A DNA stretch of 64,000 nucleotides from an uncultured delta proteobacterium (GCA_963790475.1 CAWBOS010000010.1:768001-832000); one strand, 5' to 3'; numbered from the stretch's first letter, positions 1-13,271 are shown. Program-made: numbers and translations. Notes: generated by a model not told the origin, from the letters alone.

Positions 1-591
1 ATAGTCTTAGAGGAATATCGACGCCAAGAAGTGAGCCCTATTTTAATAACGGTCAACATAACAACGAGGGCGACAGGACCGGTACTTGACGCGATAGGGC
101 GTGAATTAGAGATAGGTGTCCGTATAGGCACCCAAAGCCATTTTTTGGCAAAAATTATAAAGTTTCTCAGAATCTCGCCTCGTCTCTTGTTGTTTGATGA
201 AGTTCATCTTTTATCATGGGAGAGCCTTGAGCTTATCCGGACAATTCATGATGCTGCCCATGTCGGGATCGTCTTTTGTGGTCAGGAGCGGTTTTATGAG
301 CAGATGCGCGGATCGCGTCGATCCTATCTGTATGATCAATTCTCTTCAAGGATCGGTTGCCTTTGCCGCCTAACTTCAATTGAAAAAAAAGATGTTAGGA
401 TGCTCTGCGAGGCGATTTATTCAAATCTTGACAATAGATGTTTGGAATTTTTGTTTTCCAAAGCCTCTGGACCGGGAAAATTTAGAGTAATGACTAAAAT
501 TTTAAAGAGAGCGGTCTTTATCGCTGAAAAAGAAAAAGTTCCCGTGACCTTGGACCTTCTTAAAGAGGCTAATTCACTTCTTCTTCTATAG
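1..591 (+). CDS. MuB/TniB-like AAA+ transposition ATPase (5'-partial)
   Basis: Frame is open from base 1 (IVLEEYRRQEVSPIL...). Walker B LLLFDEVHLL, then LELIRTIHD-x-GIVFCGQ and QFSSRIG (arginine finger region), typical of Mu B-like AAA proteins. Walker A would lie upstream of the window. Confidence 0.8.
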   Translation: MVLEEYRRQEVSPILITVNITTRATGPVLDAIGRELEIGVRIGTQSHFLAKIIKFLRISPRLLLFDEVHLLSWESLELIRTIHDAAHVGIVFCGQERFYEQMRGSRRSYLYDQFSSRIGCLCRLTSIEKKDVRMLCEAIYSNLDNRCLEFLFSKASGPGKFRVMTKILKRAVFIAEKEKVPVTLDLLKEANSLLLL

Positions 592-600
592 GAGATTGTT

Positions 601-957
601 ATGGAAATGTCTGTTGAAGCCCGGCAGGTTTTTGATTCCCTTGATGAAAAAACGAAAAGGGTCATTCAGGGAAACTATTCTTTTAAAAAACTCCGGAATG
701 AAGCTATAGTTGACCTGGGGAAAAAAGGTGTTAATGGACGCCTTTTGGCTGAGATTACCGGCCTTAGTACTTCCAGTGTGAGCCGCATTTTGGAGACGGG
801 GGGGCAAACGAGATATAAACCCGACAGGAGAGAGGTAGAATTGTGGAAACTCAAGGAAATGATTGATGGACTCTATAAGCGATACAGGCGCTTTATCTTG
901 GCCAGAGACGAAAGGAAAGGAAAAGGGTTAGGGATGGGTAGGGGGAAGAAGAGTTAA
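601..957 (+). CDS. Small helix-turn-helix DNA-binding protein
   Basis: GVNGRLLAEITGLSTSSVSRIL is an HTH pattern; RBS AGGAG upstream. Confidence 0.7.
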   Translation: MEMSVEARQVFDSLDEKTKRVIQGNYSFKKLRNEAIVDLGKKGVNGRLLAEITGLSTSSVSRILETGGQTRYKPDRREVELWKLKEMIDGLYKRYRRFILARDERKGKGLGMGRGKKS

Positions 958-1001
958 ACGTTTTTAAACGGGTTTTAAACGGTTTTAAATAGGAGGAAGA
1001 C

Positions 1002-1283
1002 ATGAAGAGTAAAGTAAAGTCTGAAAAAATTATTCAATTTCCCTTAAATCAAAAGATTATAAAACAACAGAAGGAAATGAAAAACTTGATGTTTGTAGAT
1101 AAAGAAAAGGCATATAAATACATTCGATCTGTGTTTGGTTGGGGTGCCTTATTGATAGCAATGGGCAATCACTGGAAATCTCCCGAGATAACTGACTGGG
1201 GAAACAAAATTCAGCTCTTGGGCAAAGAATTGGCAGCATTATTCGATTTTTCAATAGAAGATGTCGGAAAATATTTTATATAG
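1002..1283 (+). CDS. Hypothetical phage-element protein
   Basis: Strong RBS AGGAGG, co-oriented; IIQFP motif is common in small phage proteins. Confidence 0.6.
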   Translation: MKSKVKSEKIIQFPLNQKIIKQQKEMKNLMFVDKEKAYKYIRSVFGWGALLIAMGNHWKSPEITDWGNKIQLLGKELAALFDFSIEDVGKYFI

Positions 1284-1293
1284 GTAATCCGAC

Positions 1294-1412
1294 TTGCCCT
1301 GGATAGGCTGATCACCGAAAAGGCGGAAACTCTCACCGCCCTGCCAGGGCAAAACAAATGAGAGGCAACTTAGAGAGGGTTGCGATAGCCGGATGCTATC
1401 CAACCCTTTTTT
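1294..1412 (+). promoter_or_regulatory. Structured cis-regulatory RNA candidate with antiterminator/terminator platform
   Basis: Stem TTGCCCTGG(1294-1302)/CCAGGGCAA(1344-1352). Inner stem GGCGG/CCGCC whose loop CTCTCA matches TGAGAG(1359-1364). Terminator AGGGTTG-C-GATAGC/GCTATC-CAACCCT plus T run. Confidence 0.6.
1376..1412 (+). terminator. Intrinsic terminator immediately before the tape-measure-like gene
   Basis: 13-bp stem with one bulge followed by TTTTTT. Confidence 0.7.
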
Positions 1413-1426
1413 ATTAGGAGAAGACA

Positions 1427-3766
1427 ATGGCCGAAGTAAAAATTGAAATCACCGCCCAAGATAACACGTCCGGGGTTTTTAAAAACATCCAGGCTTCGAG
1501 CAGCTCCGCCCTTAATACAATGGCCGCCGAAACCAGGAATTATACCGAGGGCAGTAAAAGCCTGGTCACGTCCCTGAAGGAACACTGGATCGCTGCTTCA
1601 GTCGCCGTTTACGGGGCCTGGAGGATGGTGAATGAGGCTATGGACCTGGCCAAGCTCGGGGCCAAGGCCCAGCAATCCGAAGAGTCGTTCCGCACTGTAA
1701 CCAGGGCCTATGGGGAAGATGCCAGCAGTCTTTTAGAAAAGATGAAACAGGTTTCCTCCGGGATGATCGATGACTCGGCCTTAATGCAGAGGGCAGTAAA
1801 AGGACTGCAACAGGGACTAGCCGGAGAGCAGATTACTTCCATCCTGGAAATAGCGCGGACCTCGGCTCGAACGGCTGGGAAGGACGTTGTCGAAGCCTTC
1901 GATCAGATCACCGATGCAACGGCCAATCAGATGACCCGCGGGCTGAAGGCGATGGGTATTGTGGTCGACCAGAATAAGGCTTTTGAAGACCAGGCTAAAG
2001 CATTGGGAACGGTAACAGCCGGTCTTACTGAACAGCAACAATCTCAAGCCCTGGCCAACGCCGTCATCGCTGAAGGCACCCGGCAAATGAAGGCGATGGG
2101 GGATGTTACTGAAAACGCCAGTGAGAAATTTCAAAAAATGAATGCTACGATCACAGGATTTAAAGAGAATGTGGGAAAGGAGTTATTGATCGGGATAGAG
2201 AAAGTCAAAAATATCCCGAGTCTGTTAGGGAAGGGAGCGCTTTTGGCTCTTGAGGGCCTGGGAAATCCAACCGTCGCAATGTGGGCAAATATAGAAAAAG
2301 CATCCGGCGATGCCGCAAAAAAAATAAGTGACGCAGAAAAGGCCTATATAAAGATGATGTTATCTATTCAGCAAAAGGTTGACACCTTTAATTTGCTTAA
2401 GGAGAAGATTAAGGAGGTCACTCTATCTGTTCAGGAATTCGATTATAAAATGCAGGACTTGGATCCCAATGCGAATGAAACGACCAAGAGGATAGCCGAG
2501 ATTACCTCTCAAGTCCAAAAAATGAAGGAGGAGATAAGGAAATCCGTAGGTGAAAATGTCTTGAGCCAACTGGCCCCAAAGATCGACATGGGAGCTATGG
2601 AGGGAATTCGGAATGTCTATAAACAGCAGCTTAAAGACTTCGACGACCTAATACTCTCCATGTCCAATGCCCGCAAGGAAGGGATTATTAAGGACCTAGC
2701 CGAAATCGACAAAACCGAAGCGGATGCATTTAAGAAATTCAGCAATAACCAAACGATGATTACGGCCATTGCCAAGGCCGAGGATCTGGCCCGGATCGAC
2801 AGCCTGAAAAAATGGAAAGATTCCCTGATCTCGATGCACAATGAGGCCATCGCCAAGGCGCGGGAATATTATAAGACGGTGGATGACCTTAATATGGCCC
2901 TGAGCAAGAGTGCCATCTTTATGGATCAGTGGAAGAAGGGATTTCCGACCGACCAGACATCGGTTTTCAAGAATGAACAGCAAAGTCTGCAACTGATCAT
3001 CGATCAGGCCAACAATAACCCTATCGCCGCCAACCTGCAGTCGGCCATGACGGCCATCGAGAGTTTCATGCAGAAGAATAATCAATTGCGGAATGAACTG
3101 GTTGACACTCCCGGGAAAGGGCTGCAATCGATTTTTTCAGATACCGACGCGGCCAATCTATACAATCAATATGCCGGTTTTCAGACTGCCCTGGCCGGGG
3201 TAAGGGACGCGGCCAAATCCGCGGGCGACGCCGAAATGTCCGTGGCCATGCAACTGGCTGATATGATCAAGCCGGTCGACACGGCGATGGATTTATTGAA
3301 ATCAAAATTCACCGATTATGTCGATATGATCTCGGTTCAAAGGCAGGTGACCCTGGACACTTCACCGGCCATCGATTCCATCCAGGCCATAATCACAAAA
3401 ACCACGGAGGCCCTGGGCTATATCCAGCAGCTTGGCCGCTATAATACCTCCTCTACTTCCGCCATGTCCCGTCTGGCGCCCTCGGCTCCGGCTGCCGACG
3501 TGGCGCCTCCTGATTTCCCGGTTACGGCAGTTGGTACTCCCTATGTGCGCCGCTCGGGACTGGCCTGGATCGACCAGGGCGAGCGGGTGATGACTGCCGA
3601 CCAGAATAAATCCTACAGCGGCGGATCGGGAGGAAAGACCTTGAGCTTTTCATTCGGAGATATCCATGTCCATGGAACAAACGACCCCGGCGAAATAGCT
3701 CGCAAGATCATGAAGCCATTGATTTCGGAACTTCGCGAATATAACCATTTAATCGGAGGAAATTAA
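1427..3766 (+). CDS. Phage tail tape-measure-like protein (779 aa)
   Basis: N-terminus MAEVKIEITAQDNTSGVF, long Ala/Lys/Glu-rich helical body, and C-terminal GTPYVRRSGLAWIDQGERVMTADQN plus IHVHG...EIARKI, as in tape measure proteins. Confidence 0.75.
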   Translation: MAEVKIEITAQDNTSGVFKNIQASSSSALNTMAAETRNYTEGSKSLVTSLKEHWIAASVAVYGAWRMVNEAMDLAKLGAKAQQSEESFRTVTRAYGEDASSLLEKMKQVSSGMIDDSALMQRAVKGLQQGLAGEQITSILEIARTSARTAGKDVVEAFDQITDATANQMTRGLKAMGIVVDQNKAFEDQAKALGTVTAGLTEQQQSQALANAVIAEGTRQMKAMGDVTENASEKFQKMNATITGFKENVGKELLIGIEKVKNIPSLLGKGALLALEGLGNPTVAMWANIEKASGDAAKKISDAEKAYIKMMLSIQQKVDTFNLLKEKIKEVTLSVQEFDYKMQDLDPNANETTKRIAEITSQVQKMKEEIRKSVGENVLSQLAPKIDMGAMEGIRNVYKQQLKDFDDLILSMSNARKEGIIKDLAEIDKTEADAFKKFSNNQTMITAIAKAEDLARIDSLKKWKDSLISMHNEAIAKAREYYKTVDDLNMALSKSAIFMDQWKKGFPTDQTSVFKNEQQSLQLIIDQANNNPIAANLQSAMTAIESFMQKNNQLRNELVDTPGKGLQSIFSDTDAANLYNQYAGFQTALAGVRDAAKSAGDAEMSVAMQLADMIKPVDTAMDLLKSKFTDYVDMISVQRQVTLDTSPAIDSIQAIITKTTEALGYIQQLGRYNTSSTSAMSRLAPSAPAADVAPPDFPVTAVGTPYVRRSGLAWIDQGERVMTADQNKSYSGGSGGKTLSFSFGDIHVHGTNDPGEIARKIMKPLISELREYNHLIGGN

Positions 3767-3802
3767 GACTCCGGAATTTTTGAACAGAAGAGGAGGAAAA
3801 TC

Positions 3803-5014
3803 ATGGATCGTATCACCAATAAAAGCCTTTTAAGTGACATCGAGAGGACCTTATTTTATCATGCTCATGGGCAAGGCATGGCCGGAAGAAACGAGGTTGA
3901 TAAGGCGCAGGATGCCCTTATTAAGACCTTTATTCCGGAATACGATGCTGGCGGTCTCGGCGGGTTTAGTGGAATCAGGGAGGCCTATATTCACTTAACC
4001 GGGGATGACGAGTTTAGAGGTAGGGCGGGCTTTAATCTCTCAAGGGTCTCAAGTGGCTTGAGGGCTTGTGCTGATTTTGATTCAGGCACTTTCTCCTTTG
4101 CCCTGCAAAATGCCCTTAATATGTACCTGTCCAAGGCTTATAAGTCCTTTCCTTATCACGAGGAAATATTCATCTCTGAAAAAAAGACGGCCACCGACTT
4201 CAGGACAATCCAGTCCCTTCAGTTGGGGTATCTCGGGGATCTTCCAGATATCGATCCGGAGACAGGCGATTATCAGTCTCTTGGTAATTATGGAGACACC
4301 GAGTCGCAATATAAAATTGGGCAGAAAGGTGGAATCACTTGGGTGACGAGAAAACACGTCATAAATGACTTGGTTGGATTGATAAAAGCATTGCTTGACA
4401 GGAAAGCGCGAGCGGCCAGGAGAACACATGCTAAATATGTCTGGAGCTTTTTTATCAACAACGCTATCTGTCCCGATGGAACGGCATGGTTTACCGCGCC
4501 GCACGGGAACTTAGGGTCAAGTGCCTTGGATTTTGATCCCCTGGCTGCTGCGATCACCGCCCTGGCCGATATGGTGGAACCGGGGTCAGGAGAAAAACTT
4601 GGAATGGACCTTCCCACTTTCAATTGGAATTTAGTTATCCCAGTCGCTTTGTGGAAGTTGGCTGTGTCAAAAAATCAGGCGGAGTATTATTATACCGCAG
4701 CAGATGACTTAACCACCAAAACGGAGAATCCAAATTGCCGGTTGTTTGGGGATCGCAATGAAAGAATTATTATTTGTCCCTTTTTCACAGATCTCAATGA
4801 TTGGGGGGTTATTAGAGATAAGGAGGATGTTCCGATAGTTGAAATGTCTTATCTTAACGGGCACGAGGAACCTGAACTTGTCCTTGCCCATCCTGACGAT
4901 TTACCGGGAACCGAAAGAGGTCTTCATGGTGATGATTATGGCTATAAGATTCGGCATGAATATGGTGGAACCCTGGCTGATCACCAAGGCGGATTTCGGT
5001 CCGTTGTGTCCTGA
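3803..5014 (+). CDS. Mu gpT-like major capsid protein without protease/scaffold domain
   Basis: FSFALQNALN..LSKAY, TDFRT...LG.LGDLP, VINDLVG, WFTAPHGNLGSSAL and YKIRHEYG resemble the capsid domain of Mu-like/protease-capsid fusion proteins; RBS GAGGAGG. Confidence 0.75.
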   Translation: MDRITNKSLLSDIERTLFYHAHGQGMAGRNEVDKAQDALIKTFIPEYDAGGLGGFSGIREAYIHLTGDDEFRGRAGFNLSRVSSGLRACADFDSGTFSFALQNALNMYLSKAYKSFPYHEEIFISEKKTATDFRTIQSLQLGYLGDLPDIDPETGDYQSLGNYGDTESQYKIGQKGGITWVTRKHVINDLVGLIKALLDRKARAARRTHAKYVWSFFINNAICPDGTAWFTAPHGNLGSSALDFDPLAAAITALADMVEPGSGEKLGMDLPTFNWNLVIPVALWKLAVSKNQAEYYYTAADDLTTKTENPNCRLFGDRNERIIICPFFTDLNDWGVIRDKEDVPIVEMSYLNGHEEPELVLAHPDDLPGTERGLHGDDYGYKIRHEYGGTLADHQGGFRSVVS

Positions 5015-5037
5015 AAATAATAGTTTCCCAAGGCCCC

Positions 5038-5117
5038 GCCCATAGTTTCCCTCCCGTTCTATGGGCTCCAGGAGGGAGCGGTTTCTGACCCAAAGCAGAA
5101 ATCGCTCTCTACCTGGA
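5038..5117 (+). ncRNA. Two-hairpin structured element downstream of capsid gene
   Basis: GCCCATAG/CTATGGGC (5038-5066) and a ~21-bp hairpin 5067-5117. Loop TCCCTCC is complementary to GGAGGGA (5071-5077). Confidence 0.45.
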
Positions 5118-5131
5118 ATTAAAGGAATCGA

Positions 5132-5554
5132 ATGAAAAAAAGTGAATTTTTAACCAATATTGCCCAAGGATATAATTCTAAAATTGAAACGGTGTTTTTT
5201 TGTAACGAGAAGCGTTTGCCAGATGGTGCCTGGGGTGTGGCAAACGCCCAACCCAACTTGGAATGGTATCGAATCTTGCTTAATGATAAACTTCTTTCCT
5301 GCCCAATCCGCGCCCTTGGGGTCTTGTTCCATGAGCTAGGCCATATTGTTCTGAATCATTTTTATTCGGTGGATACTGAAAGTGAGGAGAGAGCCGCAAT
5401 CGAATGGGCATTTAGGGAAATGGGAACAATCGACCAAGAGGGAAAGATAAAGAAGGAAAACTCCTTTTGCTATGTTTGTATATCTCTCTATTCAAAATTA
5501 TGCCTTAAGAAATTTCATGACCAAATACGACCCCAGAAAAGCAGAACAATATAG
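5132..5554 (+). CDS. ImmA/IrrE-like zinc metallopeptidase
   Basis: ILLND...LFHELGHIVLNH (HExxH) followed by EERAAIEWA. Confidence 0.7.
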   Translation: MKKSEFLTNIAQGYNSKIETVFFCNEKRLPDGAWGVANAQPNLEWYRILLNDKLLSCPIRALGVLFHELGHIVLNHFYSVDTESEERAAIEWAFREMGTIDQEGKIKKENSFCYVCISLYSKLCLKKFHDQIRPQKSRTI

Positions 5555-5726
5555 GGGACGGCCACATTCTCATTATCGGAACCAGGGCAAGCATAAATGC
5601 AGGTTATGTGGGAAGAAAACAGACAATCATTGGAACTGCCCGGCTTGCCTGGATAGGATGGCCAAGGGAGAGATTGAATCGCCGGTAACCGATGTCTTGG
5701 GCTATGATCTCGACGTGCCGCTATAG
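5517..5726 (+). CDS. Small zinc-ribbon protein
   Basis: CRLC-x9-CPAC; start taken at ATG 5517 (MTKYDPRK). Confidence 0.55.
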   Translation: MTKYDPRKAEQYRGRPHSHYRNQGKHKCRLCGKKTDNHWNCPACLDRMAKGEIESPVTDVLGYDLDVPL

Positions 5727-5782
5727 ATAAAGGGCCTTTTAAACCCCATTTAATGGCCCTTTTTCCCCCTCCGAATCCCAGT

Positions 5783-5831
5783 TTTTGGAAATTTCAAGTT
5801 ACATTTTGGCAAAATGAAGTTACACGTTATA
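5783..5831. repeat. Putative right end: two tandem 21-bp transposase binding sites
   Basis: TTTTGGAAATTTCAAGTTACA (5783-5803) and TTTTGGCAAAATGAAGTTACA (5804-5824), 17/21 identical, followed by CGTTATA. Confidence 0.65.
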
Positions 5832-6042
5832 AGAGGGGAATCCGGAAGATCGGCGTATTTTTGGAGATAATCTACCATATATTGTATACATTTTTTAAAT
5901 AGCTCCTTTCTATTGTATTTTTTTCTTTACAAAATGATTTTTTTCATTAAAATTAAAATGAGAATCGAATCGGATGACTGATTGGCAATAAACCGTAATA
6001 AGATAGGTGGACTCCTTTTATATTGGAAGGGAATATTCTAAA

Positions 6043-9000
6043 GTGAAACTTAAAAGATTAGAACTTAATGGATTTAAATCATTTTCAGAAAAGACAGTCG
6101 TTTCTTTCCCCAAAGGGATAAGTGGCGTTGTTGGGCCCAATGGATGCGGGAAAAGCAATATTGTGGATGCCATAAAATGGGTCATGGGAGAACAAAGCCC
6201 CAAGCAGTTACGAGGCAAAGGCATGGATGATGTGATCTTCGCCGGATCCAACGGCAAATCCTCAGTGGGCATGGCCGAAGTCTCCCTGGTTTTGGACAAT
6301 GACAACGGCTCCATCCCCCAAGAATACGCCGATTTCAGTGAGGTGGTTATAACCCGCCGATTGTTCCGGGACGGAGAAAGCGAGTACGCCATTAACAACA
6401 AGGCTTGCCGGCTTAAAGATGTTACTCATTTATTTATGGATACCGGGGTAGGGAGCAAGGCCTATTCGGTTATCGAACAAGGCCGGATCGGGGCCATTAT
6501 CGATTCGAAACCTGAAGACCGCCGACACTGGATCGAAGAAGCTGCCGGTATTTCCAGGTATAAGAGCAAAAAGAACGAAACCTTGCGTAAGTTGGAGCTG
6601 ACTCAACAGAATCTATTACGGGTTGGGGATGTTATCGCTGAAATCAAGAGACAGATGAACTCCTTGTACCGTCAGGCCAAGAAGGCTGAACGTTTTAAAG
6701 AGATCCGGAAACAATCCAAAGAAGTGGAATTAGTTCTATTAGCCAAGGAATATCAAGCGTTACTGGAAGGGAAAGGACTGAAAGAAGAAGAACTTGGCCG
6801 TCAGCAGGAACAAACCGTGGAGCTTAGAGAAGAATGTTATACGCACGAGTCCTCGTTGGAACAGCTTCAAGCGGAGCTAATGGCACTCGAAAGGCAGTTG
6901 AAAGAAAAGCAAGAGCAATTCTACCGGCAAAAGGGTGAGTTGCAGAGCCAGGAGGCCTTGATTCAACAATACCAGAAGGAATTGAAAAATCTTGGAGATG
7001 ATGCCGTTGAAATAGAAAGGGAAGTTAACGAAATCGAACAATGGTTGAATGAAAATGAAGCCAGGGAAAAGGTCCTGGCAGAAGAGGTGACTTCATTTAC
7101 CCAAACGGTGGCCCTGGAGGAAGACCAGGTTCGGGAGAAAGAACTATCACTTTCGGAATCCAAAAAAGAATTGGCCCAAAGTCAGGAACAAGGCGAACAA
7201 ACCAAAGATTTCTTAGTCACCAAGTTGACTGAGCTGACCCAGGTGAGGAATATGCGGGCCGGCTTGGTCAAACTGCGGGAAGATCGGGAGCGTCGGATTA
7301 TTCGTCAGGGTGAAGAGAAAGCGCAGTTAACAGCCCGCTTGGATTTTTTAAATACATCCCTTCTGGATATAGAGACCCGGTTGGCGGTGCAAAGGGAAGC
7401 CCTAAGAGAATTTAAAGAGAAAATAATTCAAGCTCAACAGCAGAAGATCGATATTGAAAAAATCCACAAAACCTTGGAGGGTGAATTAAGCGATTTGGAA
7501 CAGGGCTGGAAACAAGATCAGGCCCAAATCAGGAACCTGCAGGAGATCCGCGACAATTTCCAAAGTTATCAAAATGGTGTCCGAGCTTTGCTTAAGGCCG
7601 AATGGCCTGAAGAGATTAAGGAGTCCCCGACTTTCCGGCAGGTGTTGGTTGAAGGTCTGGAAACCGAACCGGGATGCGAGACGGCCGTAGAAGCAGCTTT
7701 GGGGGAAGCCCTGCAAGCCCTGATGATCCAAGACTCATCGTTCGCTGTTCAAGGAATCGACTATTTGAAAGATCAGGGTCAAGGCCGGGCCACCTTCCTT
7801 CCTATGAAACCTCCTGTATCCTCGATTAAAACAACTCCCGCGCCTTGGGAAGAAAATGGATTGGTTTCCTTATTGTCCAAAGTCTCTGCCCAACGGGAAT
7901 TTGAAGACTGGCTGAAGGTCTTATTAAGTCCTTTTGTTCTGGTTTCGGATTTAAGGGAAGGATTGGAGGTCTGGGGAAAAAACCCCGGGCAGGTCTGCGT
8001 GGTTAGCCTACAAGGAGACCTGATCGACTCCAAGGGGATTATTTCCGGCGGCAGTTCCAGAAACCCGGAGAGCGGCATCCTCTTCCAAAAGAACCTCATT
8101 CATAAACTGGAACTGAAAGTAAGGGATTGGCAGGAAAAGATCGATCAGAAAAAGGAGAGTATCCTGACCACAGAAAAAGACCTCAGTGATCGAATCCATC
8201 AATTCAAGGCCCTGGAGGACGGAAAACAAGAGAAAGAAGAGCTCATCCTGGAATTGGAGAAACGCCTGATCGGCTATCAGGAAGAAACCAAACCCATGCA
8301 GCGCCGGCTTCAATTACTCATTCTGGAAGAGGATGAATATCGGACACAGGAAGAGGATCAGGCCTTGGAAGAACAAGACCTATCCTTACAGGAAGAAACC
8401 CTGAATAAAGAAATTGAGGGGATCAGAGAAGACATTCATGACCATGAAGGAAAAAATAAAATTCTGGAAAACGACCTGGACCAAGAAAGGGAGTCTTTGA
8501 CTCTGGCCTATACCCGGGTGTCGGCCCTAAAGGAAAAGGGAGGACATATTGGACGGGAATGGGAACAATTGAAAGAATCCCTGAACGAAAAACGAAACCG
8601 ACAAAAAAGGCTTTGGGAAAAAATCCAGATCGGAAATCAGGCTCAGGCGGAATTGAGGGAAAAATCATCCTCTGGAGAGGCCTTGATTACGGGTTTACTT
8701 GCCTTGGTCAATGACTTTGAGGCTCAGATCCAGGCCGCTAATCAAAATTGGGAAAAGATGATCAAACAAAAAGAAGACTGGGAAACGGTTTTAAAAGAAA
8801 CCCGGGGTCTTCTGAATGAGGCCGAGCAGCAGGAAAACGAGCATAGAATGGAATTAGCCCAAATGGTGATGAAGATCGATCATGTAAAAGAACAGATTCT
8901 GGAACAGTCCGGACTGCCTGCGGAGGAAGTGGTTTCGACTTATTTAAAAGGCGGTGAAGATCTGGGGGCCTTAAGGGAGAGACGCAGAGAATTTAAAGAA

Positions 9001-9615
9001 AAGCTGGAACAATTAGGAGAAGTGAATTTGACCGCCCTGGAAGAATACAATGCTTTTAAGGAGCGGTATGATTTTTACCACACTCAGGAGGAGGATCTGC
9101 TTAAATCCATGGATTCCCTGAAACGGGCCATCCAAAAAATAAATTTCACTTCCAAGGAACTTTTTTTGTCCACCTTTAAAATGATTCAGGAAAAGATGAA
9201 CGAGGTTTTCCCCGTGTTGTTCGGAGGCGGCAGTGCCAAATTATCCCTGATCGATGAAGATGATCCTCTGGAATCCGGAGTAGACATTATGGTCCATCCT
9301 CCGGGAAAAAGAGTGACTAATATGACCCTTCTTTCCGGTGGGGAAAAGGCCCTTACTGCCCTGGCCCTTTTATTCTCAACCTATTTAGTTAAACCCAGCC
9401 CCTTCTGTCTATTGGACGAAATAGACGCTTTTCTGGATGAGGCCAACGTCGAACGATTCAAAAGTCTAGTCCAGAGTATCGTCCGGGATTCCCAGATTAT
9501 CCTGATTACCCACAACCGACGGATCATGGAAATGGCTGACACCCTCTATGGGGTGACTATGGAACAACCGGGGATATCCAAGCTGGTATCGGTCCGGTTG
9601 GATACCATACAATAG
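6043..9615 (+). CDS. smc: Chromosome segregation protein SMC
   Basis: GFKSF, Walker A GPNGCGKSN, long coiled coils, hinge GRATFLP, signature LSGGEK, Walker B LLDEID. Probable GTG start at 6043. Confidence 0.97.
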   Translation: MKLKRLELNGFKSFSEKTVVSFPKGISGVVGPNGCGKSNIVDAIKWVMGEQSPKQLRGKGMDDVIFAGSNGKSSVGMAEVSLVLDNDNGSIPQEYADFSEVVITRRLFRDGESEYAINNKACRLKDVTHLFMDTGVGSKAYSVIEQGRIGAIIDSKPEDRRHWIEEAAGISRYKSKKNETLRKLELTQQNLLRVGDVIAEIKRQMNSLYRQAKKAERFKEIRKQSKEVELVLLAKEYQALLEGKGLKEEELGRQQEQTVELREECYTHESSLEQLQAELMALERQLKEKQEQFYRQKGELQSQEALIQQYQKELKNLGDDAVEIEREVNEIEQWLNENEAREKVLAEEVTSFTQTVALEEDQVREKELSLSESKKELAQSQEQGEQTKDFLVTKLTELTQVRNMRAGLVKLREDRERRIIRQGEEKAQLTARLDFLNTSLLDIETRLAVQREALREFKEKIIQAQQQKIDIEKIHKTLEGELSDLEQGWKQDQAQIRNLQEIRDNFQSYQNGVRALLKAEWPEEIKESPTFRQVLVEGLETEPGCETAVEAALGEALQALMIQDSSFAVQGIDYLKDQGQGRATFLPMKPPVSSIKTTPAPWEENGLVSLLSKVSAQREFEDWLKVLLSPFVLVSDLREGLEVWGKNPGQVCVVSLQGDLIDSKGIISGGSSRNPESGILFQKNLIHKLELKVRDWQEKIDQKKESILTTEKDLSDRIHQFKALEDGKQEKEELILELEKRLIGYQEETKPMQRRLQLLILEEDEYRTQEEDQALEEQDLSLQEETLNKEIEGIREDIHDHEGKNKILENDLDQERESLTLAYTRVSALKEKGGHIGREWEQLKESLNEKRNRQKRLWEKIQIGNQAQAELREKSSSGEALITGLLALVNDFEAQIQAANQNWEKMIKQKEDWETVLKETRGLLNEAEQQENEHRMELAQMVMKIDHVKEQILEQSGLPAEEVVSTYLKGGEDLGALRERRREFKEKLEQLGEVNLTALEEYNAFKERYDFYHTQEEDLLKSMDSLKRAIQKINFTSKELFLSTFKMIQEKMNEVFPVLFGGGSAKLSLIDEDDPLESGVDIMVHPPGKRVTNMTLLSGGEKALTALALLFSTYLVKPSPFCLLDEIDAFLDEANVERFKSLVQSIVRDSQIILITHNRRIMEMADTLYGVTMEQPGISKLVSVRLDTIQ

Positions 9616-9741
9616 AGTTGGCCGCCTTTCCCATCAATAATCTGCGGCAAAGATAATATTTACACCTCTATTAAACCTATGCTAAGCTCTCTCCCATGCT
9701 ATTTAAAATTTTAATCTCCTTTTTGATAAGAGTTATCAGAA

Positions 9742-9938
9742 GGTCTTGTTATTGGAGTCAATCACCTATAAGGCATGAGCTTCTTTTGGCGAAGGACGAA
9801 ATTTGAACTAGGTTATAATAACCGGCCATTAACCTCTCCTGTGCCAGGTTGGGGTGAATGCTCTGCGGTCCATGAACTTAGCCCCCGGGCCGGGCTTGGG
9901 CGTTGGATTGTCTTTCGAACATTCCCAATAACAAGACC
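9742..9938. repeat. 14-bp perfect inverted repeat pair bounding 197 bp (possible MITE remnant)
   Basis: GGTCTTGTTATTGG (9742-9755) / CCAATAACAAGACC (9925-9938); no target duplication seen. Confidence 0.45.
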
Positions 9939-10021
9939 CCCAGGTATCCATCGCCTGCGGGTGAGAAATCCTAAAATTACAAAGGCCTAAGAATCTAGAA
10001 GAGTCTATTGATCTAACATCT

Positions 10022-10793
10022 ATGTTGCCACCTATGAACAGGCTAGAAGAAAAAAAAAGGATTCATCCTTGGGCAGGGGTACTTTTCCTGGCAGTCCTGC
10101 TTATCGGTCAGCAGGTCTGGGCCAAGGTCTACAGCGTTCAGATAGGAGTATTTCAAAAAGTTCAGAATGCCCAGCAGCAATTTAAGCGGCTGGAGAAATC
10201 GTTACCTACAAATTTGTTGGATCACCTCCGGATTGAAAAAACCGGAAAGGGTTATATTGTCAAGGTCGGGAAATTTAGTGACCTGGAACAGGCGCAGACC
10301 TTACTTTCAGCCATAACGCCTCTTTCTCCCGATGCCTTTATCTGGAAAGGAGATTTTATAAAGGAACAAATTTTAAAGACAGAAAAGAATCCAAACCCTC
10401 GCTGCGGATCGCTCTTCAACTGAGGGTAAGGTTTCTTCTTCCATTGAAAGGAAAAAAGATGAATCTCCCGGGAAATCCGAAATCCCCTATCCGATCAACC
10501 AAGCCCTCCTTAGAGGAACCATTCGTGAAATCAATTCCTTGGCCTCCGAAAAAATTGGATTGCCTCCCGGAAAGAAAATTTATCGACTGAAAATTCAGGT
10601 AGAAGAGAGTAAAGAAATAAAAGGGTTCCCGGATTTTTTAAAAGAAAAGGAGGGGGAGTTATTAACCGTGTTCTCGGAAACCAGTCCGCCTTTTTTCCAA
10701 CCCGGAAACAAAATTACGGCTGTCGCCGAATATCGAGGGGATCGTTTCAGCCGATTCACCTGGATCATTAAACCCCAGGCCGTCAAACCATGA
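10022..10793 (+). pseudogene. SPOR-domain exported protein split by a 1-nt frameshift
   Basis: Signal peptide plus YSVQIGVF..QNA...YIVKVGKF (SPOR) in 10022-10423. The +1 frame is open from ~10376 (QTLAADRSS...LLRGTIREINSLASEKIG) into ORF 10539-10793. Confidence 0.6.
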
Positions 10794-10852
10794 ATCTCCG
10801 AATTCCAACTTCAGATTTTCACAAAAAATAAAAGAAACCAAGGCAGGCCAAT

Positions 10853-11869
10853 ATGTTGAAATGGTTTACTCCAAAAGAACAAAAAAATAACATTGAAAAA
10901 ACTGAACCCCCCGGAGAAGACAGGGAAGGGTTTCCTGAATCCGGTGAGACCCCTGAAAATAAGAAGGGTTTTTTTGGCCGGCTGAAAGAAAGGTTGACCA
11001 AGACCCGGGAAACCTTTGTCACCCGAGTGGATCGTCTGGTTCTGGGGAAAAAAGAGATCGACGAAGACTTGTTGGAGGAATTGGAAGAAATACTGATCAC
11101 TTCGGATTTGGGGGTCATGACTACTCAAGTCCTGATTGATTCCGTTCAACAAAAGGTCAAACGAAAAGAGCTGGATGATCCCAATCGGCTGAAGGAATAT
11201 TTACAGCAAGAAATTCTTCGTTTTTTGGATGTGACCAAAAGGACGCTGGATTTTTCTAAAAAACCTTTCGTCATTCTAGTCGTCGGGGTAAACGGGGTGG
11301 GAAAAACCACCACTATCGGTAAATTGGCTCAGCGTTTTCAAGCCCAGGGGAAAAAGGTCCTATTGGTGGCCGGAGATACCTTCCGAGCAGCGGCCGGTGA
11401 ACAATTAGAGATTTGGGCCGGGCGGTCCGGAGCCGAAATCATCCGCCAGAAAGAAGGCTCCGATCCTTCGGCCGTAGTTTTTGACGCCGTTAAGGCCGCC
11501 CGGGCTCGGGAGATAGATATTGTTCTGATCGATACGGCAGGAAGACTTCATACCCGGGTAAACCTGATGGAGGAGCTGAAAAAGATTCACCGGGTAGTCC
11601 AGAAAGAGATCCCCGACGGTCCTCATCAAACCTGGTTGGTCCTGGATGCCACCATGGGGCAGAATGCCATCTCCCAAGCCCGAATTTTCAACGAGGCCAT
11701 GGAAATCAACGGGATTATCCTGACCAAATTAGACGGCACAGCCAAAGGGGGGATCATCGTCGGCATCTGCAATGAACTGAAGATTCCGATTGAATATATC
11801 GGTATCGGCGAAAAGGCGGAGGATTTACAACCCTTCAATCCTGAGGAATTCGTCCGGGCCTTATTCTGA
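10853..11869 (+). CDS. ftsY: Signal recognition particle receptor FtsY
   Basis: GVNGVGKTTTIGKLA, DTFRAAA, DTAGRL, TKLDGTAKGG. Confidence 0.97.
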   Translation: MLKWFTPKEQKNNIEKTEPPGEDREGFPESGETPENKKGFFGRLKERLTKTRETFVTRVDRLVLGKKEIDEDLLEELEEILITSDLGVMTTQVLIDSVQQKVKRKELDDPNRLKEYLQQEILRFLDVTKRTLDFSKKPFVILVVGVNGVGKTTTIGKLAQRFQAQGKKVLLVAGDTFRAAAGEQLEIWAGRSGAEIIRQKEGSDPSAVVFDAVKAARAREIDIVLIDTAGRLHTRVNLMEELKKIHRVVQKEIPDGPHQTWLVLDATMGQNAISQARIFNEAMEINGIILTKLDGTAKGGIIVGICNELKIPIEYIGIGEKAEDLQPFNPEEFVRALF

Positions 11870-11921
11870 TAGGTTCGTCTAAAATAGCCTACCTGGGGTT
11901 GTTACCCTTCAGGCAGATCTT

Positions 11922-13271
11922 CTACCACTTTTCTTTTAATTGGATCTCTTTTTGATCCCCTACCACGACCAGTAGAAAATTGTCGGGTTTGAGATAGGTC
12001 CGGGCCACGCGAAGTACCTCTTCAGCCGTCACCTGATTGATAAGTTTGGTGTATTTTTCCGGGAAATCCAAACCCAGGCCATACAATTCCATGGCTGATA
12101 GGAGCCGCACCATCTTTCCATTGGTATCCATTCGCAGCGGGAAGCTTCCGGTTAAATAGGCCTTAGCCTCGGAAAGTTCTGTCGGGGAAACCCCTTGTTC
12201 AATCATTTTCTTTATTTCTTTTAATATCTCGAAAAGGCCCTGGTTGGTATTTTTATTTTCCGTTTCCACGACAATTTGAAAAGAGCCGGGGTATTCCCGG
12301 GCATCAAAAAGACTGTATATCCCATAAGTCAAGCCCAGGTTATCCCTGATATTATCCACCAGACGGGAAACGAAACCTCCTCCCCCCAGAATATAATTCA
12401 TAACCTGGAGGGCATAATAGTCCGGGTTGGATCGGGATATACCCAGGTGCCCCCAAATGATATTGGCCTGGGTGATAGGCCGATCGATTTTTTCTATCAC
12501 CGGATTGGTTAATTTCGGGGGCGGAGACAGGATGGAGCGGGAGCCGGGGGCCGGCTTCCATTCTTTGAAAAGGGGCTCAAGCAGGAGAACCCCTTCTTCC
12601 AGGGATATTTGGCCGACCATAATGACGCTGAGATTGTCTGGCCGGTAGTAGGTCTTGAAAAAATGGACTATATCTTCTCTGGCGATCGAAGAGAGGGTTA
12701 CCGGAGATCCTTCTGACAGATTGGCATAGGGATGAGTCCCGAATAGTATTTTTGAAAATGCCATGCGGGCCACCTGCCTGGGCTCTTCGTCCATACGCTT
12801 CAAACGAGCTTTCAATTCCGAAACCTTACGTTCTATCTCCGGAGGGGCAAAAAGGGGACTCAAAAGGATATCCGAAAGGATAGATAGGCCGAGGGGCAGG
12901 TCTTTTTTTAGAATGGACAGGTTTAAGGCGGCATAGTCCGATTCGCAGGAGGCGGAAAGGGAACCCCCGACCGATTCGATCTCCCGGCTTATTTGAGTGG
13001 CCTTTCTTTGAGCCGTACCCCGGGTCAGCAATTCAGCCGTCAAATTGGCCAAACCGAGCAGGTGAGGGGGATCTTGCGATGATCCGGCCCGGATCATAAC
13101 CTGAAGATGGATGGTCGGGAGTTGGCTCCTTTCGGAAACAATTAAGACTATTCCATTGGAAAGGATGGTTTTTCGAGTCAGAGGCATGGCCCCGGTCAAT
13201 GAAGAAGAAGCAACGGCTCCGGTAGAAGTTATGAAAATAGGCATTATGGTTAAGACCTTTCGGATCATCAT
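11922..13271 (-). CDS. M16 family peptidase, non-catalytic-type subunit
   Basis: LSNG, GLANLTAELLTRGT (HxxEH absent), ILGGGGFVSRL...IRDNLGLTYG. Confidence 0.88.
   Translation of the reverse strand: MMIRKVLTIMPIFITSTGAVASSSLTGAMPLTRKTILSNGIVLIVSERSQLPTIHLQVMIRAGSSQDPPHLLGLANLTAELLTRGTAQRKATQISREIESVGGSLSASCESDYAALNLSILKKDLPLGLSILSDILLSPLFAPPEIERKVSELKARLKRMDEEPRQVARMAFSKILFGTHPYANLSEGSPVTLSSIAREDIVHFFKTYYRPDNLSVIMVGQISLEEGVLLLEPLFKEWKPAPGSRSILSPPPKLTNPVIEKIDRPITQANIIWGHLGISRSNPDYYALQVMNYILGGGGFVSRLVDNIRDNLGLTYGIYSLFDAREYPGSFQIVVETENKNTNQGLFEILKEIKKMIEQGVSPTELSEAKAYLTGSFPLRMDTNGKMVRLLSAMELYGLGLDFPEKYTKLINQVTAEEVLRVARTYLKPDNFLLVVVGDQKEIQLKEKW

Follow-up and report, generated by a model that had tools for sequence, protein, structure and literature searches.

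The window analyzed here comprises 64,000 nucleotides of DNA from an uncultured delta proteobacterium. Its positions 1 to 5831 correspond to the right two thirds of a Mu-type element of ∼9.1 kb overall, designated element A, and contain the following features (numbered from the first nucleotide of the window):

1 to 591, + strand: MuB-like AAA+ transposition ATPase, C-terminal 196 of 325 amino acids (aa), in an open reading frame (ORF) open at its 5′ end
601 to 957, + strand: small helix-turn-helix (HTH) protein, 118 aa (family C6), likely regulator; weak HTH matches only in Pfam and PHROGs
1002 to 1283, + strand: 93-aa ORF (orf93); 0 families in Pfam or PHROGs
1296 to 1365, + strand: int-alpA RNA (Rfam RF02996); 47.8 bits versus a gathering score of 35.8, E = 3.9e-07
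1427 to 3766, + strand: tape-measure protein (TMP) homologue, 779 aa, with both end modules; family profile compared with solved TMPs
3803 to 5014, + strand: stand-alone HK97-fold major capsid protein, 403 aa; Pfam PF25209 (Phage_capsid_4), E = 2.6e-25
5132 to 5554, + strand: HExxH metalloprotease-like protein, 140 aa (ImmA/IrrE-type); phrog_87 (metallo-protease), E = 1.3e-07
5472 to 5726, + strand: Zn-ribbon protein, 84 aa; weak zinc-ribbon matches; overlaps the 3′ end of the protease gene
5786 to 5831, no strand assigned: right end, with two transposase-site-like repeats and a terminal inverted repeat; inner CA at 5824, probable terminus at 5831

All six ORFs within 601–5726 are present and uninterrupted. 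An earlier note on this DNA had placed six intact ORFs between a MuB-like ATPase and an apparent right end, and both boundaries were recovered. The ATPase matches PF09077 (Phage-MuB_C, E = 2.8e-08) and PF13401 (AAA_22, E = 6.2e-09) in Pfam and phrog_296 (DNA transposition protein, E = 2.7e-27) in PHROGs; its full length was obtained by tblastn of the organism's own genome, which places the gene start 387 nucleotides upstream of the window. MuA, also upstream, is a 570-aa protein matching Mu-transpos_C (PF09299, E = 4.2e-08) and rve (E = 1.6e-04), and its DDE triad (D169/D174, D233 and E290) falls in columns that are invariant across 29 family members. The order of element A is a MerR-like regulator, a small HTH protein, the MuA DDE transposase, MuB, the HTH regulator, the int-alpA RNA, the TMP, the capsid protein, the ImmA-like metalloprotease, the Zn-ribbon protein and the right end. 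Insertion was between a chemoreceptor gene on one side and smc on the other, and host genes flank the element on both sides. The 20 kb upstream of the window, where the earlier note had considered that missing head and tail genes might lie, hold MuA and the MerR-like gene, followed by host genes (MCPs, glyS and recO).

The two ends are paired by a 20-nucleotide inverted repeat, in which positions 5805–5824 are 85% complementary to a left-end site (L004:1711–1730) located 3.3 kb upstream of the window, the arms being 9.1 kb apart. In addition, positions 5786–5814 are directly repeated at an internal site, ∼215 bp in from the left end. The right terminus is probably at 5831, by analogy with element B (a second copy described below), whose termini are 7 nucleotides outside its TG/CG; the earlier note gave the same coordinate. 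MuA, a regulator and an inverted left end had been predicted for the upstream sequence and were found there, but a clean 5-bp target duplication, also predicted and looked for at the ends of element A, was not. Element-free flanks lie close together in four genomes of the same genus (G004, G005, G008 and G010). With a MuA-type DDE transposase, a MuB partner and inverted ends bearing repeated sites, element A shows these features of a Mu-type element, and we are confident that it is a complete transposon of ∼9.1 kb, positions 1–5831 being its right part.

The 118-aa HTH protein is likely to be a regulator, and was found at 18 of the 27 loci of the family described below. An atlas comparison matched it to small phage HTH proteins with a score of only 0.83. 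The 93-aa orf93 may not be a real gene, because no relative was detected in any locus examined; no tblastn match was obtained in element B, and its profile found itself only. The int-alpA RNA lies immediately 5′ of the TMP gene and occupies the equivalent position in element B (45.6 bits). The 140-aa protease-like protein gives weak Pfam matches to SprT-like, M48 and M78 families; its gene, whose place directly 3′ of the capsid gene is conserved in the family, is found at 19 of the 27 family loci and at none of the fused-capsid loci (see below). The 84-aa Zn-ribbon protein is 86% identical to its element B counterpart and weakly resembles C4, a protein of ∼190 aa that comes after the protease in other members (E = 0.0095 in element A and 0.0048 in element B with the C4 profile).

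Identification of the 403-aa protein as an HK97-fold capsid protein is solid, in keeping with the gpT-like capsid of the earlier note. In addition to the PF25209 match, phrog_29592 is matched at E = 3e-47, covering only positions 526–890 of the 893-position profile; the protein lacks the protease-scaffold part carried by full-size relatives. The AlphaFold model (pLDDT 92.7, pTM 0.88) gave 356 PDB matches at E ≤ 0.001 with Foldseek. Among the matches listed, the top ones are almost all HK97-fold capsids of phages and satellites (LME-1, DT57C, HK97, GTA, P4, SaPI1 and Mu among them), with a few encapsulin shells that share this fold.

The 779-aa protein is likewise solidly identified by profile comparison as a tape-measure protein, as had been proposed: its family profile matches solved TMPs (8hqo_x, E = 2.9e-14; T5 pb2, 7zqp_j, E = 7e-10). 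Residues 4–254 share 37% identity with the TMP (760 aa) that full-size phage L100 encodes within its tail module, and the C-terminal module also occurs at the C-termini of TMPs in L119, L113, L111 and L130, so that both end modules are common to TMPs of the fused-capsid relatives. Whereas the L100 homologue is inside a tail module, the TMP gene of element A is outside any, preceded by a small ORF and an RNA motif and followed by the capsid gene.

Element B is a diverged second copy on another contig of the same genome, 9605 bp in length and flanked by a 5-bp target duplication (CCCAA). It has the same gene order and end plan as element A, both termini being 10 nucleotides outside a conserved site, and the DDE triad of MuA is kept in both. 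Identities between the two copies are 26% for MuA, 37% for MuB, 59% for the TMP, 74% for the capsid protein and 87.5% for the 118-aa HTH protein. Values of dN/dS, a test proposed in the earlier note, indicate purifying selection (capsid 0.12, TMP 0.16 and HTH 0.19, with dS above 0.6–1.8).

In total, 27 distinct loci join a stand-alone capsid to MuA/MuB. The earlier note had proposed looking elsewhere for the arrangement seen in the window, and recurrence holds for the architecture (element B and 26 further distinct loci) but not for the TMP, which was found in only 6 of the 27; what the family conserves as cargo is a capsid gene together with the ImmA-like protease, not a TMP–capsid pair. TMP lengths are 711–814 aa in six elements and 1255 aa in L011, overlapping the 760–1402 aa of full-size relatives. 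Both observations weaken the earlier suggestion that the element reshapes tail length. A portal-like gene is present in two stand-alone loci and a MuF-like gene in one. Many members also encode a divergent CI-like repressor, a Ner-like HTH_35 protein and GemA. Four compact elements could be delimited, at 8.7–9.6 kb; a few others appear larger. Those in G153 (9364 bp) and G044 (8747 bp) have clean 5-bp duplications (TTGGG and TATGT), with uninterrupted empty sites in the sister species G271 and G085. Such independent recent insertions with intact duplications show that the compact form transposes actively. Element termini read TA...TA, with TG/CA 7 nucleotides inside. The elements are sporadically distributed, occurring in 1 of 21 genomes of the order and in 3 of the 401 that make up a phylum sample, and sequence comparison reveals them to be mosaic. 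Decay also occurs: a relative in the same genus (G009) has frameshifted MuA and MuB genes and no capsid gene.

Forty of 41 stand-alone capsids, that of element A among them, fall in one clade (SH-aLRT 99), whose sister clade (SH-aLRT 98) contains 44 fused capsids and five end-truncated rows. The fused capsids are protease-scaffold-capsid proteins of ∼40-kb transposable siphoviruses. Their genes follow TerL, portal and MuF and are succeeded by a tail module that includes a TMP, and a MuA-type transposase was found near one end in 5/5 fused-capsid records tested (33–43 kb). C5, a small gene upstream of the stand-alone capsid gene, likewise stands before the fused one at 23 full-size loci. The protease and C4 genes are specific to the compact family, with none at fused-capsid loci. 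The compact elements very probably constitute an undescribed monophyletic family derived from transposable siphoviruses. We have equally high confidence that the family keeps the Mu early region (immunity, A, B and often GemA) and, of the virion module, the capsid domain only, some members having a TMP, portal-like or MuF-like gene as well. There is also little doubt that this domain was freed from the fused protease-scaffold part of the ∼40-kb relatives. The possibility that the locus is a unique deletion derivative, raised in the earlier note, conflicts with the recurrence at 27 distinct loci and with purifying selection.

As the earlier note had reported, Pfam and PHROGs searches of positions 1–5831 detected no terminase, portal, protease, tail tube or sheath, baseplate or lysis families, and no full virion module (terminase, portal, protease/scaffold, tail and lysis) exists within the 9.1 kb of element A. 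TerL was found at none of the stand-alone loci versus 34 fused loci. The organism's own genome, 100% complete by marker genes, gave no matches for four terminase families, two portal families or HK97 Phage_capsid. A co-resident complete Mu-like helper, which the earlier note had proposed to look for, was not found in three carrier genomes (G000, G153 and G044): neither Terminase_6N nor a fused sister-type capsid was detected in them, and a sister-lineage TerL protein gave no match there, a query that matched nowhere and was run without a positive control. Four assemblies contain both kinds, a sister-type capsid as well as a compact element, as read from contig-name prefixes (L162/L188/L224 with L205, L177 with L203, L179 with L204, and L191 with L194). 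Public sequencing runs gave no sign of packaging, yielding only low-depth contigs without joints or heterogeneous flanks.

Compact elements resemble Mu and Mu-like siphoviruses and myoviruses in having MuA with Mu-transpos_C, MuB with MuB_C, inverted multi-site ends and 5-bp target duplications (element B, G153 and G044), as well as, in many members, the repressor, Ner-like and GemA genes. Both the capsid protein and the TMP have homologous counterparts in ∼40-kb transposable phages. They differ in size (9 kb versus 33–43 kb), in lacking terminase, protease, tail tube, baseplate and lysis genes, in having a stand-alone capsid domain instead of the fusion, and in their termini. Element A additionally lacks portal-like and MuF-like genes, and in elements A and B a co-oriented MerR-like gene stands where Mu-type relatives have a divergent repressor. 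With no full virion module and host genes on both sides, element A was rejected as a complete Mu-like virus. Laboratory mini-Mu, a few kilobases comprising the Mu ends with A and B, transposes and is packaged by helper Mu with adjacent host DNA. Compact elements share this plan but occur naturally, constitute an old clade, and add a capsid gene of their own as well as a dedicated protease/Zn-ribbon module; a literature search found no natural packaged mini-Mu elements.

P4 is about 11.6 kb and integrates by means of a tyrosine integrase. It too is compact, it diverts the assembly of helper heads towards a smaller capsid (as proposed below for element A), and its procapsid (7jw1) is among the structural matches of the element A capsid. 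Element A, however, brings its own capsid protein and transposes, whereas P4 relies on capsid protein from the helper and on the external scaffold Sid, encoded in an int-psu-delta-sid module, according to passages of PMC13612085. The cf-PICIs are likewise small chromosomal elements with their own HK97-fold capsid that use a helper phage for the remainder, as element A would, and the EcCI2 capsid (9gyi_B) is among the structural matches. They differ from element A, which has MuA/MuB mobility and no detectable integrase, AlpA or primase families, and from its family, in which it is usually the capsid gene alone that is present. P4-like elements, PICIs, cf-PICIs and PLEs integrate by integrases and are defined by core genes (int, alpA, pri and psu/delta/sid in the parts of PMC13612085 that set out definitions); element A has neither, and assignment to these groups was rejected.

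The best reading of element A, to which we give about an even chance, is that it is a phage satellite, a hitch-hiker of full-size transposable phages. It fits one part of the definition of a satellite, being without the genes for autonomous virion production and carrying capsid and TMP genes that would act on helper morphogenesis. The earlier inference of a DDE-transposing satellite is borne out in its transposition machinery and in the absence of a virion set of its own, but not in a resident helper. On this reading, a compact element would be unable to make virions alone and would ride full-size transposable phages of the sister lineage. Infection or induction of the helper would cause the protease/regulator module to lift repression, and the derepressed element would replicate by MuA/MuB transposition. 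Helper terminase would then package it starting at its Mu-type end, while the element's own capsid protein would co-assemble with, or replace, the helper's fused subunit. The resulting smaller head would suit about 9–10 kb plus short host flanks, a scaling estimate only, and the TMP, where present, would enter helper tails.

An unlikely alternative is that the element is never packaged and serves in interference or defence, its capsid protein and TMP acting as dominant-negative subunits that poison assembly of related transposable phages; the host, and hence the element, would be protected, with spread only by transposition and other vectors. A capsid protein without the protease-scaffold part found in all sister-clade phages could plausibly disturb assembly, the TMP retains both end modules needed for entering a helper tail, no resident helper was found in the three carrier genomes searched, and strong purifying selection is compatible with any protein-level function. 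Nevertheless, sporadic distribution and mosaicism imply that horizontal transfer is frequent and therefore that a vehicle is required, and the narrow range of delimited sizes is unexplained by a pure defence cassette. Known satellites also interfere with their helpers, so interference is compatible with the satellite reading.

Less probable still is a helper-free function, in which portal-less shells would form an encapsulin-like compartment or virus-like particle of use to the transposon or the host, one that sequesters, for example, a partner protein or DNA. The HK97-fold shell protein without portal or terminase, in the element or its genome, is similar to encapsulins, with good matches to 9fy6_B (TM 0.60 on target) and 6nj8. 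Encapsulin cargo genes usually lie directly upstream of the shell gene, where these elements have a conserved small gene or the TMP. However, the best structural matches among those listed are phage capsids, PF25209 is a family of phage capsids, complete phages supply the closest relatives in the form of virion proteins, and two members carry a portal homologue. Because C5 precedes the fused capsid at 23 full-size loci, it is a head-module gene and no cargo. The neighbours of the 403-aa protein are a TMP and an ImmA-like protease, with no adjoining enzyme of the cargo kind, and encapsulin identity was rejected. Most improbable, and largely refuted, is that element A is what deletions have left of a full-size transposable phage, with its capsid and TMP genes en route to loss. 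The patchy TMP, portal-like and MuF-like genes, the frameshifted relative and the missing target duplication are all consistent with decay. Against this, all ORFs are intact, a point that the earlier note had raised against random decay, dN/dS is low across substantial dS, two copies with transposases only 26% identical have the same layout, and stand-alone capsids form one deep clade apart from the fused forms; recent insertions retain 5-bp duplications, and the protease and C4 are missing from fused-capsid loci.

Several observations also weigh against the satellite reading. Hijacking with nothing more than a capsid protein would be unusual. The capsid-forming satellites described so far possess portal, adaptors and small terminase as well, according to the passages of PMC13612085 that deal with them. 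The variable gene content can be read as stages of reduction, no helper was found in G000, G153 or G044, the public runs gave no sign of packaging, element A lacks a clean target duplication, and the G009 relative is decayed. Note that our literature searches found no transposase-based satellite, and that the main text of a satellite census paper contains no occurrence of "transposase", "transposable" or "Mu-like". If the satellite reading is true, element A may represent the first phage satellite to depend on transposition for its movement.

Element A is a compact Mu-type element whose right two thirds occupy positions 1-5831 of the window. The upstream 20 kb hold the remainder of MuB, a 570-aa MuA-type transposase (Mu-transpos_C, 4.2e-08; rve; HTH_28), as the earlier note had expected, and a 113-aa MerR-like gene. 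Beyond the MerR-like gene only host genes were found (two chemoreceptor genes, a periplasmic binding protein, glyS/glyQ, recO, aspS and a surA-like gene), and the proposal that missing head and tail genes might lie upstream of the window therefore falls. Within the window, the ORF listing agreed with the earlier reading of six uninterrupted ORFs behind the MuB-like ATPase. The main genes were assigned as follows.

Window 1-591, 5'-open ORF: C-terminal part of MuB (PF09077 MuB_C, 2.8e-08; AAA_22; phrog_296, 2.7e-27)
Window 1427-3766: tape-measure protein (TMP), 779 aa (PHROG tape-measure match initially weak, 7.1e-06)
Window 3803-5014: stand-alone capsid, 403 aa (Pfam PF25209 Phage_capsid_4, 2.6e-25)
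Downstream part: 140-aa protease-like protein with an HExxH motif (phrog_87 metallo-protease, 1.3e-07)
Downstream part: 84-aa protein, a zinc ribbon by Pfam/PHROG comparison

A 20-nt inverted repeat pairs L004:1711-1730, in an upstream stretch, with window 5805-5824, and supplies the inverted left end that had been anticipated. The termini were placed by analogy with element B, a diverged second copy in the same genome whose termini both lie exactly 10 nt outside a conserved site; those of element A would lie 7 nt outside TG and CA, giving a right terminus at window 5831 and a size of 9128 bp. The predicted target duplication of about 5 bp was not recovered, the boundary-pair scan giving only chance-level 5-mers at element A. 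In four genomes of the same genus (G004, G005, G008 and G010) both flanks lie close together and the element is absent. Other species' empty sites have diverged so far in the intergenic region that they do not place the junction to the base. A 1202-aa co-oriented ORF with SMC-like sequence (window 6007-9615) starts 176 nt past the right end. Upstream of the window, glyQ lies in two overlapping ORFs of 158 and 124 aa (L001:5869-6575) and the periplasmic binding-protein gene is in pieces (L001:9333-10536); these are either pseudogenes or assembly indel errors, which bears on how frameshifts in this genome are judged.

To identify the capsid, an AlphaFold model built from a 112-sequence alignment (pLDDT 92.7, pTM 0.88) replaced an earlier, poor one built from 22 sequences (pLDDT 57). 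A Foldseek search of the PDB with this model found 356 matches at E<=0.001. Those ranked highest are mostly HK97-fold capsids (LME-1, DT57C/T5, HK97, RcGTA, the P4 procapsid, SaPI1, the cf-PICI EcCI2, Mu and JBD30), with a few encapsulins also among the matches; the HK97 fold proposed earlier was thus borne out by structure prediction. The 403-aa protein aligns solely to the C-terminal 365 positions of the fused PHROG profiles named “major head and protease”, and its best identity in a named-phage collection is at most 29%.

The TMP had no match in the same collection. A profile built from the 779-aa protein together with five relatives matched solved TMPs (8hqo_x, 2.9e-14; T5 pb2, 7e-10). Over its first 254 residues the 779-aa protein shows 37% identity to the 760-aa TMP encoded in the tail module of L100, a full-size phage contig, and the C-terminal module also stands at the very C-terminus of TMPs in four other full-size relatives. 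These matches, with both end modules common to full-size TMPs, uphold the earlier identification and show that the protein is a complete TMP, neither a fragment nor a scaffold. The TMP C-terminus was also considered as a relative of C5, a small protein that precedes the capsid elsewhere; the similarity test gave no match. The HTH protein yielded weak leads only in an atlas search.

Element B (L003:4568-14172, 9605 bp, on contig C12) has the gene order of element A and is bounded by the 5-bp duplication CCCAA. Amino-acid identity between A and B is low in the transposition backbone (MerR-like 30%, MuA 26%, MuB 37%) and high in the cargo (HTH 87.5%, TMP 59%, capsid 74%, protease 75%, Zn-ribbon 86%), so the cargo module has been swapped between very different transposition backbones. 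Values of dN/dS (NG86) between the two copies were 0.12 for the capsid, 0.16 for the TMP, 0.19 for the HTH protein, 0.33 for the protease and 0.31 for the Zn-ribbon, with dS ranging from 0.24 to 1.79. Directly after the left terminal site, both elements carry a G-rich run in which GGGATG-like units recur about every 10 nt (L004:1731-1768 in A; L003:4594-4632 in B). This run, common to both left ends despite transposases only 26% identical, could be a packaging or host-factor site.

Just 5' of the TMP gene, A and B both contain the Rfam int-alpA RNA motif above gathering score (window 1296-1365; L003:9460-9529). The motif recurs at L151:7623-7741 in the same-genus genome G009, at 94% DNA identity, where different small genes follow it (140, 242, 72 and 204 aa). 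Possibly it acts as a portable leader for the cargo module. No Mu-gpT-DE motif was matched in element A in the Rfam comparison (E<=1), window 5020-5117 behind the capsid gene included. Note that “int-alpA”, in the available part of PMC13612085, denotes a gene order and not the RNA motif. The G009 element itself (L151, G009:C27:8001-24000, minus strand at about 5600-13200) lacks capsid and TMP genes and has MuA split into 285 and 402 aa and MuB into 183 and 177 aa. It is either a decaying family member or a product of assembly indels.

Database relatives of the capsid numbered 161 in the searched length class (221-706 aa), the best 120 of the 161 being 270-429 aa long. Contig scans supplied 80 genome, 60 viral and 80 metagenome loci, which were annotated with profiles built from elements A and B. 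At 27 distinct loci, where distinct means a capsid less than 98% identical, one contig carries both MuA/MuB and a stand-alone capsid gene. Counts in the following gene order are out of these 27 loci, several contigs of which end early.

1. Divergent CI-like repressor and Ner-like HTH_35 protein, or MerR-like gene and small HTH
2. MuA (26/27) and MuB (27/27)
3. GemA
4. HTH protein (18/27)
5. Protein of about 100-170 aa (14/27)
6. C5, about 95 aa (19/27)
7. Capsid gene
8. Protease (19/27)
9. Zn-ribbon protein C4, about 190 aa (17/27)

Helper-derived parts vary from member to member. A TMP is present in six of the 27 loci, either 5' or 3' of the capsid gene, and also on two short contigs without MuA/MuB. 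Two stand-alone loci have a portal-like gene (L010:11245-12759, 504 aa; L005:5043-6488, split 351+124 aa) and one has a MuF-like gene (L090:5427-6371, 314 aa). TerL was found in no stand-alone locus, compared with 34 fused-capsid loci; the protease and C4 are confined to stand-alone loci. In 23 full-size loci C5 likewise stands ahead of the capsid gene in its fused form. L005 was considered as a circularly permuted element and rejected, its 613-aa ORF being TMP-like and not MuA. Both ends of a 9543-bp metagenome contig (L165) lie inside MuB and overlap by 102 nt at 94% identity; a right and a left terminus, read by eye from the sequence, are about 62 nt apart. The contig is better read as a tandem pair of copies at a single hot spot than as a circle.

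The capsid domain forms the C-terminal part of 750-900-aa proteins on viral contigs of 33-43 kb, at 41-46% identity. There the fused protein follows TerL, portal and MuF and precedes the tail module, and a MuA-type transposase was found near one end in all five such records tested. A rapid maximum-likelihood tree was computed for 168 capsid domains, without identical rows or rows shorter than 340 aa; 14 rows cut off by a contig end carry the label “edge”. With midpoint rooting only, 40 of 41 stand-alone capsids and 4 edge rows form one clade (SH-aLRT 99), and its sister, likewise dependent on the midpoint root, holds 44 fused and 5 edge rows (SH-aLRT 98). The remaining stand-alone capsid falls in a distant acidobacterial group. 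This grouping points to a compact state that is old and diversified.

Among 401 genomes sampled from the phylum, the stand-alone clade occurs only in the genome under study and in G153 and G044, two genomes of one genus that are 97-98% complete; within the order it occurs in 1 of 21 genomes. The G153 element (9364 bp, L237:3089-12452) is flanked by the duplication TTGGG and the G044 element (8747 bp, L238:3606-12352) by TATGT. Both lie directly upstream of mraZ-rsmH-ftsL-ftsI-murE-murF, just ahead of the mraZ promoter region, and two sister species retain the uninterrupted empty site. Complete compact elements have inserted here twice independently, at points 8-9 bp apart; this shows the compact form to be mobile and indicates a regional target preference. 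DNA identity between the two is 94-98% in the flanks, 94% at the capsid end and 76% across MuB-HTH-GemA (about 6402-8795 of L237), and about 4816-6402 of L237, most of the MuA gene, gave no DNA-level alignment. This mosaic pattern is the same as in A and B. Three further compact elements (L010, L157 and L180) are each followed by nrdD, and two of the three by a 229-aa gene as well; either nrdD is part of the cargo in these three, or the family favours promoter-proximal sites in front of co-oriented host operons.

A co-resident complete Mu-like helper, which the earlier note had advised looking for, was not found. In the genome under study (completeness 100% by markers, contamination 9.68%) no match was obtained to any of Terminase_6N, TerL_ATPase, Terminase_3, GpA_ATPase, Phage_portal and Phage_capsid; Portal_Mu also gave 0 matches there, a family likewise absent in all control genomes. 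In tblastn, seven full-size relatives' genes were not found in this genome except for capsid and TMP. Terminase_6N is absent from G153 and G044. The L100 TerL query had no match in any of the three genomes, although this query, run without a positive control, matched nowhere. By these searches the compact elements persist where no helper is resident. In four metagenome assemblies, judged by contig-name prefixes, a compact element occurs together with a sister-type capsid, which is weak support for a helper link. Assembly of three DNA read sets yielded nothing beyond short contigs of low depth, without joints (the best run contained 0.28 of the sampled words), and no RNA data set was listed as containing the element.

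The observation of a Mu-type element carrying only capsid and TMP among virion genes was confirmed as a whole by the intact ORFs, MuA/MuB, the host genes upstream, the HK97 fold and the TMP. More broadly, this transposon family keeps one virion gene under purifying selection, without a packaging motor. Decay of a prophage, with this copy a unique deletion derivative under relaxed selection, was an alternative; we reject it on the existence of element B and 27 distinct loci, the single old clade, and the low dN/dS of capsid and TMP. A satellite is the best available explanation, though one reached by inference. Shortening of the helper's tail is not supported, because the TMP is not shorter than helper-type TMPs.

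In its full form, which we hold tentatively and at somewhat below even probability, the proposal is that this is the first satellite family to live and replicate as Mu-type transposons. Its own scaffold-less HK97 capsid would build heads, co-assemble with the helper's capsid or resize the head; the terminase of a full-size transposable siphovirus would package the element starting from the transposon end; further helper parts (TMP, portal, MuF) would be gained by recombination; and a preference for promoter-proximal insertion, together with transposon-style packaging that includes host flanks, would make the elements transduction vehicles for adjacent host DNA. The four delimited elements (8747, 9128, 9364 and 9605 bp) would fit a T=3-4 head, an estimate from our own volume scaling of a T=7 head of about 40 kb. 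The ImmA-like protease adjoining a DNA-binding Zn-ribbon protein suggests, by analogy with ImmA/ImmR systems, a derepression switch.

P4-like, PICI, cf-PICI, PLE and PICMI satellites are described with integrases in the available portions of the sources (e.g. PMC13612085, PMC10085698), and the accessible part of a 2026 paper defines the first three by integrase-based cores (PMC13612085). The main text of a 2023 satellite census contains 0 occurrences of “transposase”, “transposable” or “Mu-like”, and its supplements could hold exceptions (PMC10085698). A 2024 essay on hitcher elements, in its available part, names transposases only for IS and MITEs (PMC11389934). No transposase-based satellite was found in the accessible portions of the literature on satellites, Mu-like or transposable phages, transposase and capsid.

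If true, a satellite that is a replicative transposon would be a new way of parasitising phages. It would join Mu transposition to satellite capsid redirection, both of them well-studied fields, and would account for a class of “viral” contigs of 8-10 kb that recurs in metagenomes from sediments and anaerobic settings. The family includes members that are precisely delimited, recently mobile and open to testing, and it is a natural experiment on an HK97 capsid domain freed from its protease-scaffold fusion. Should the satellite reading be wrong, it would still be a clean case of a transposon retaining a single virion gene over the long term.
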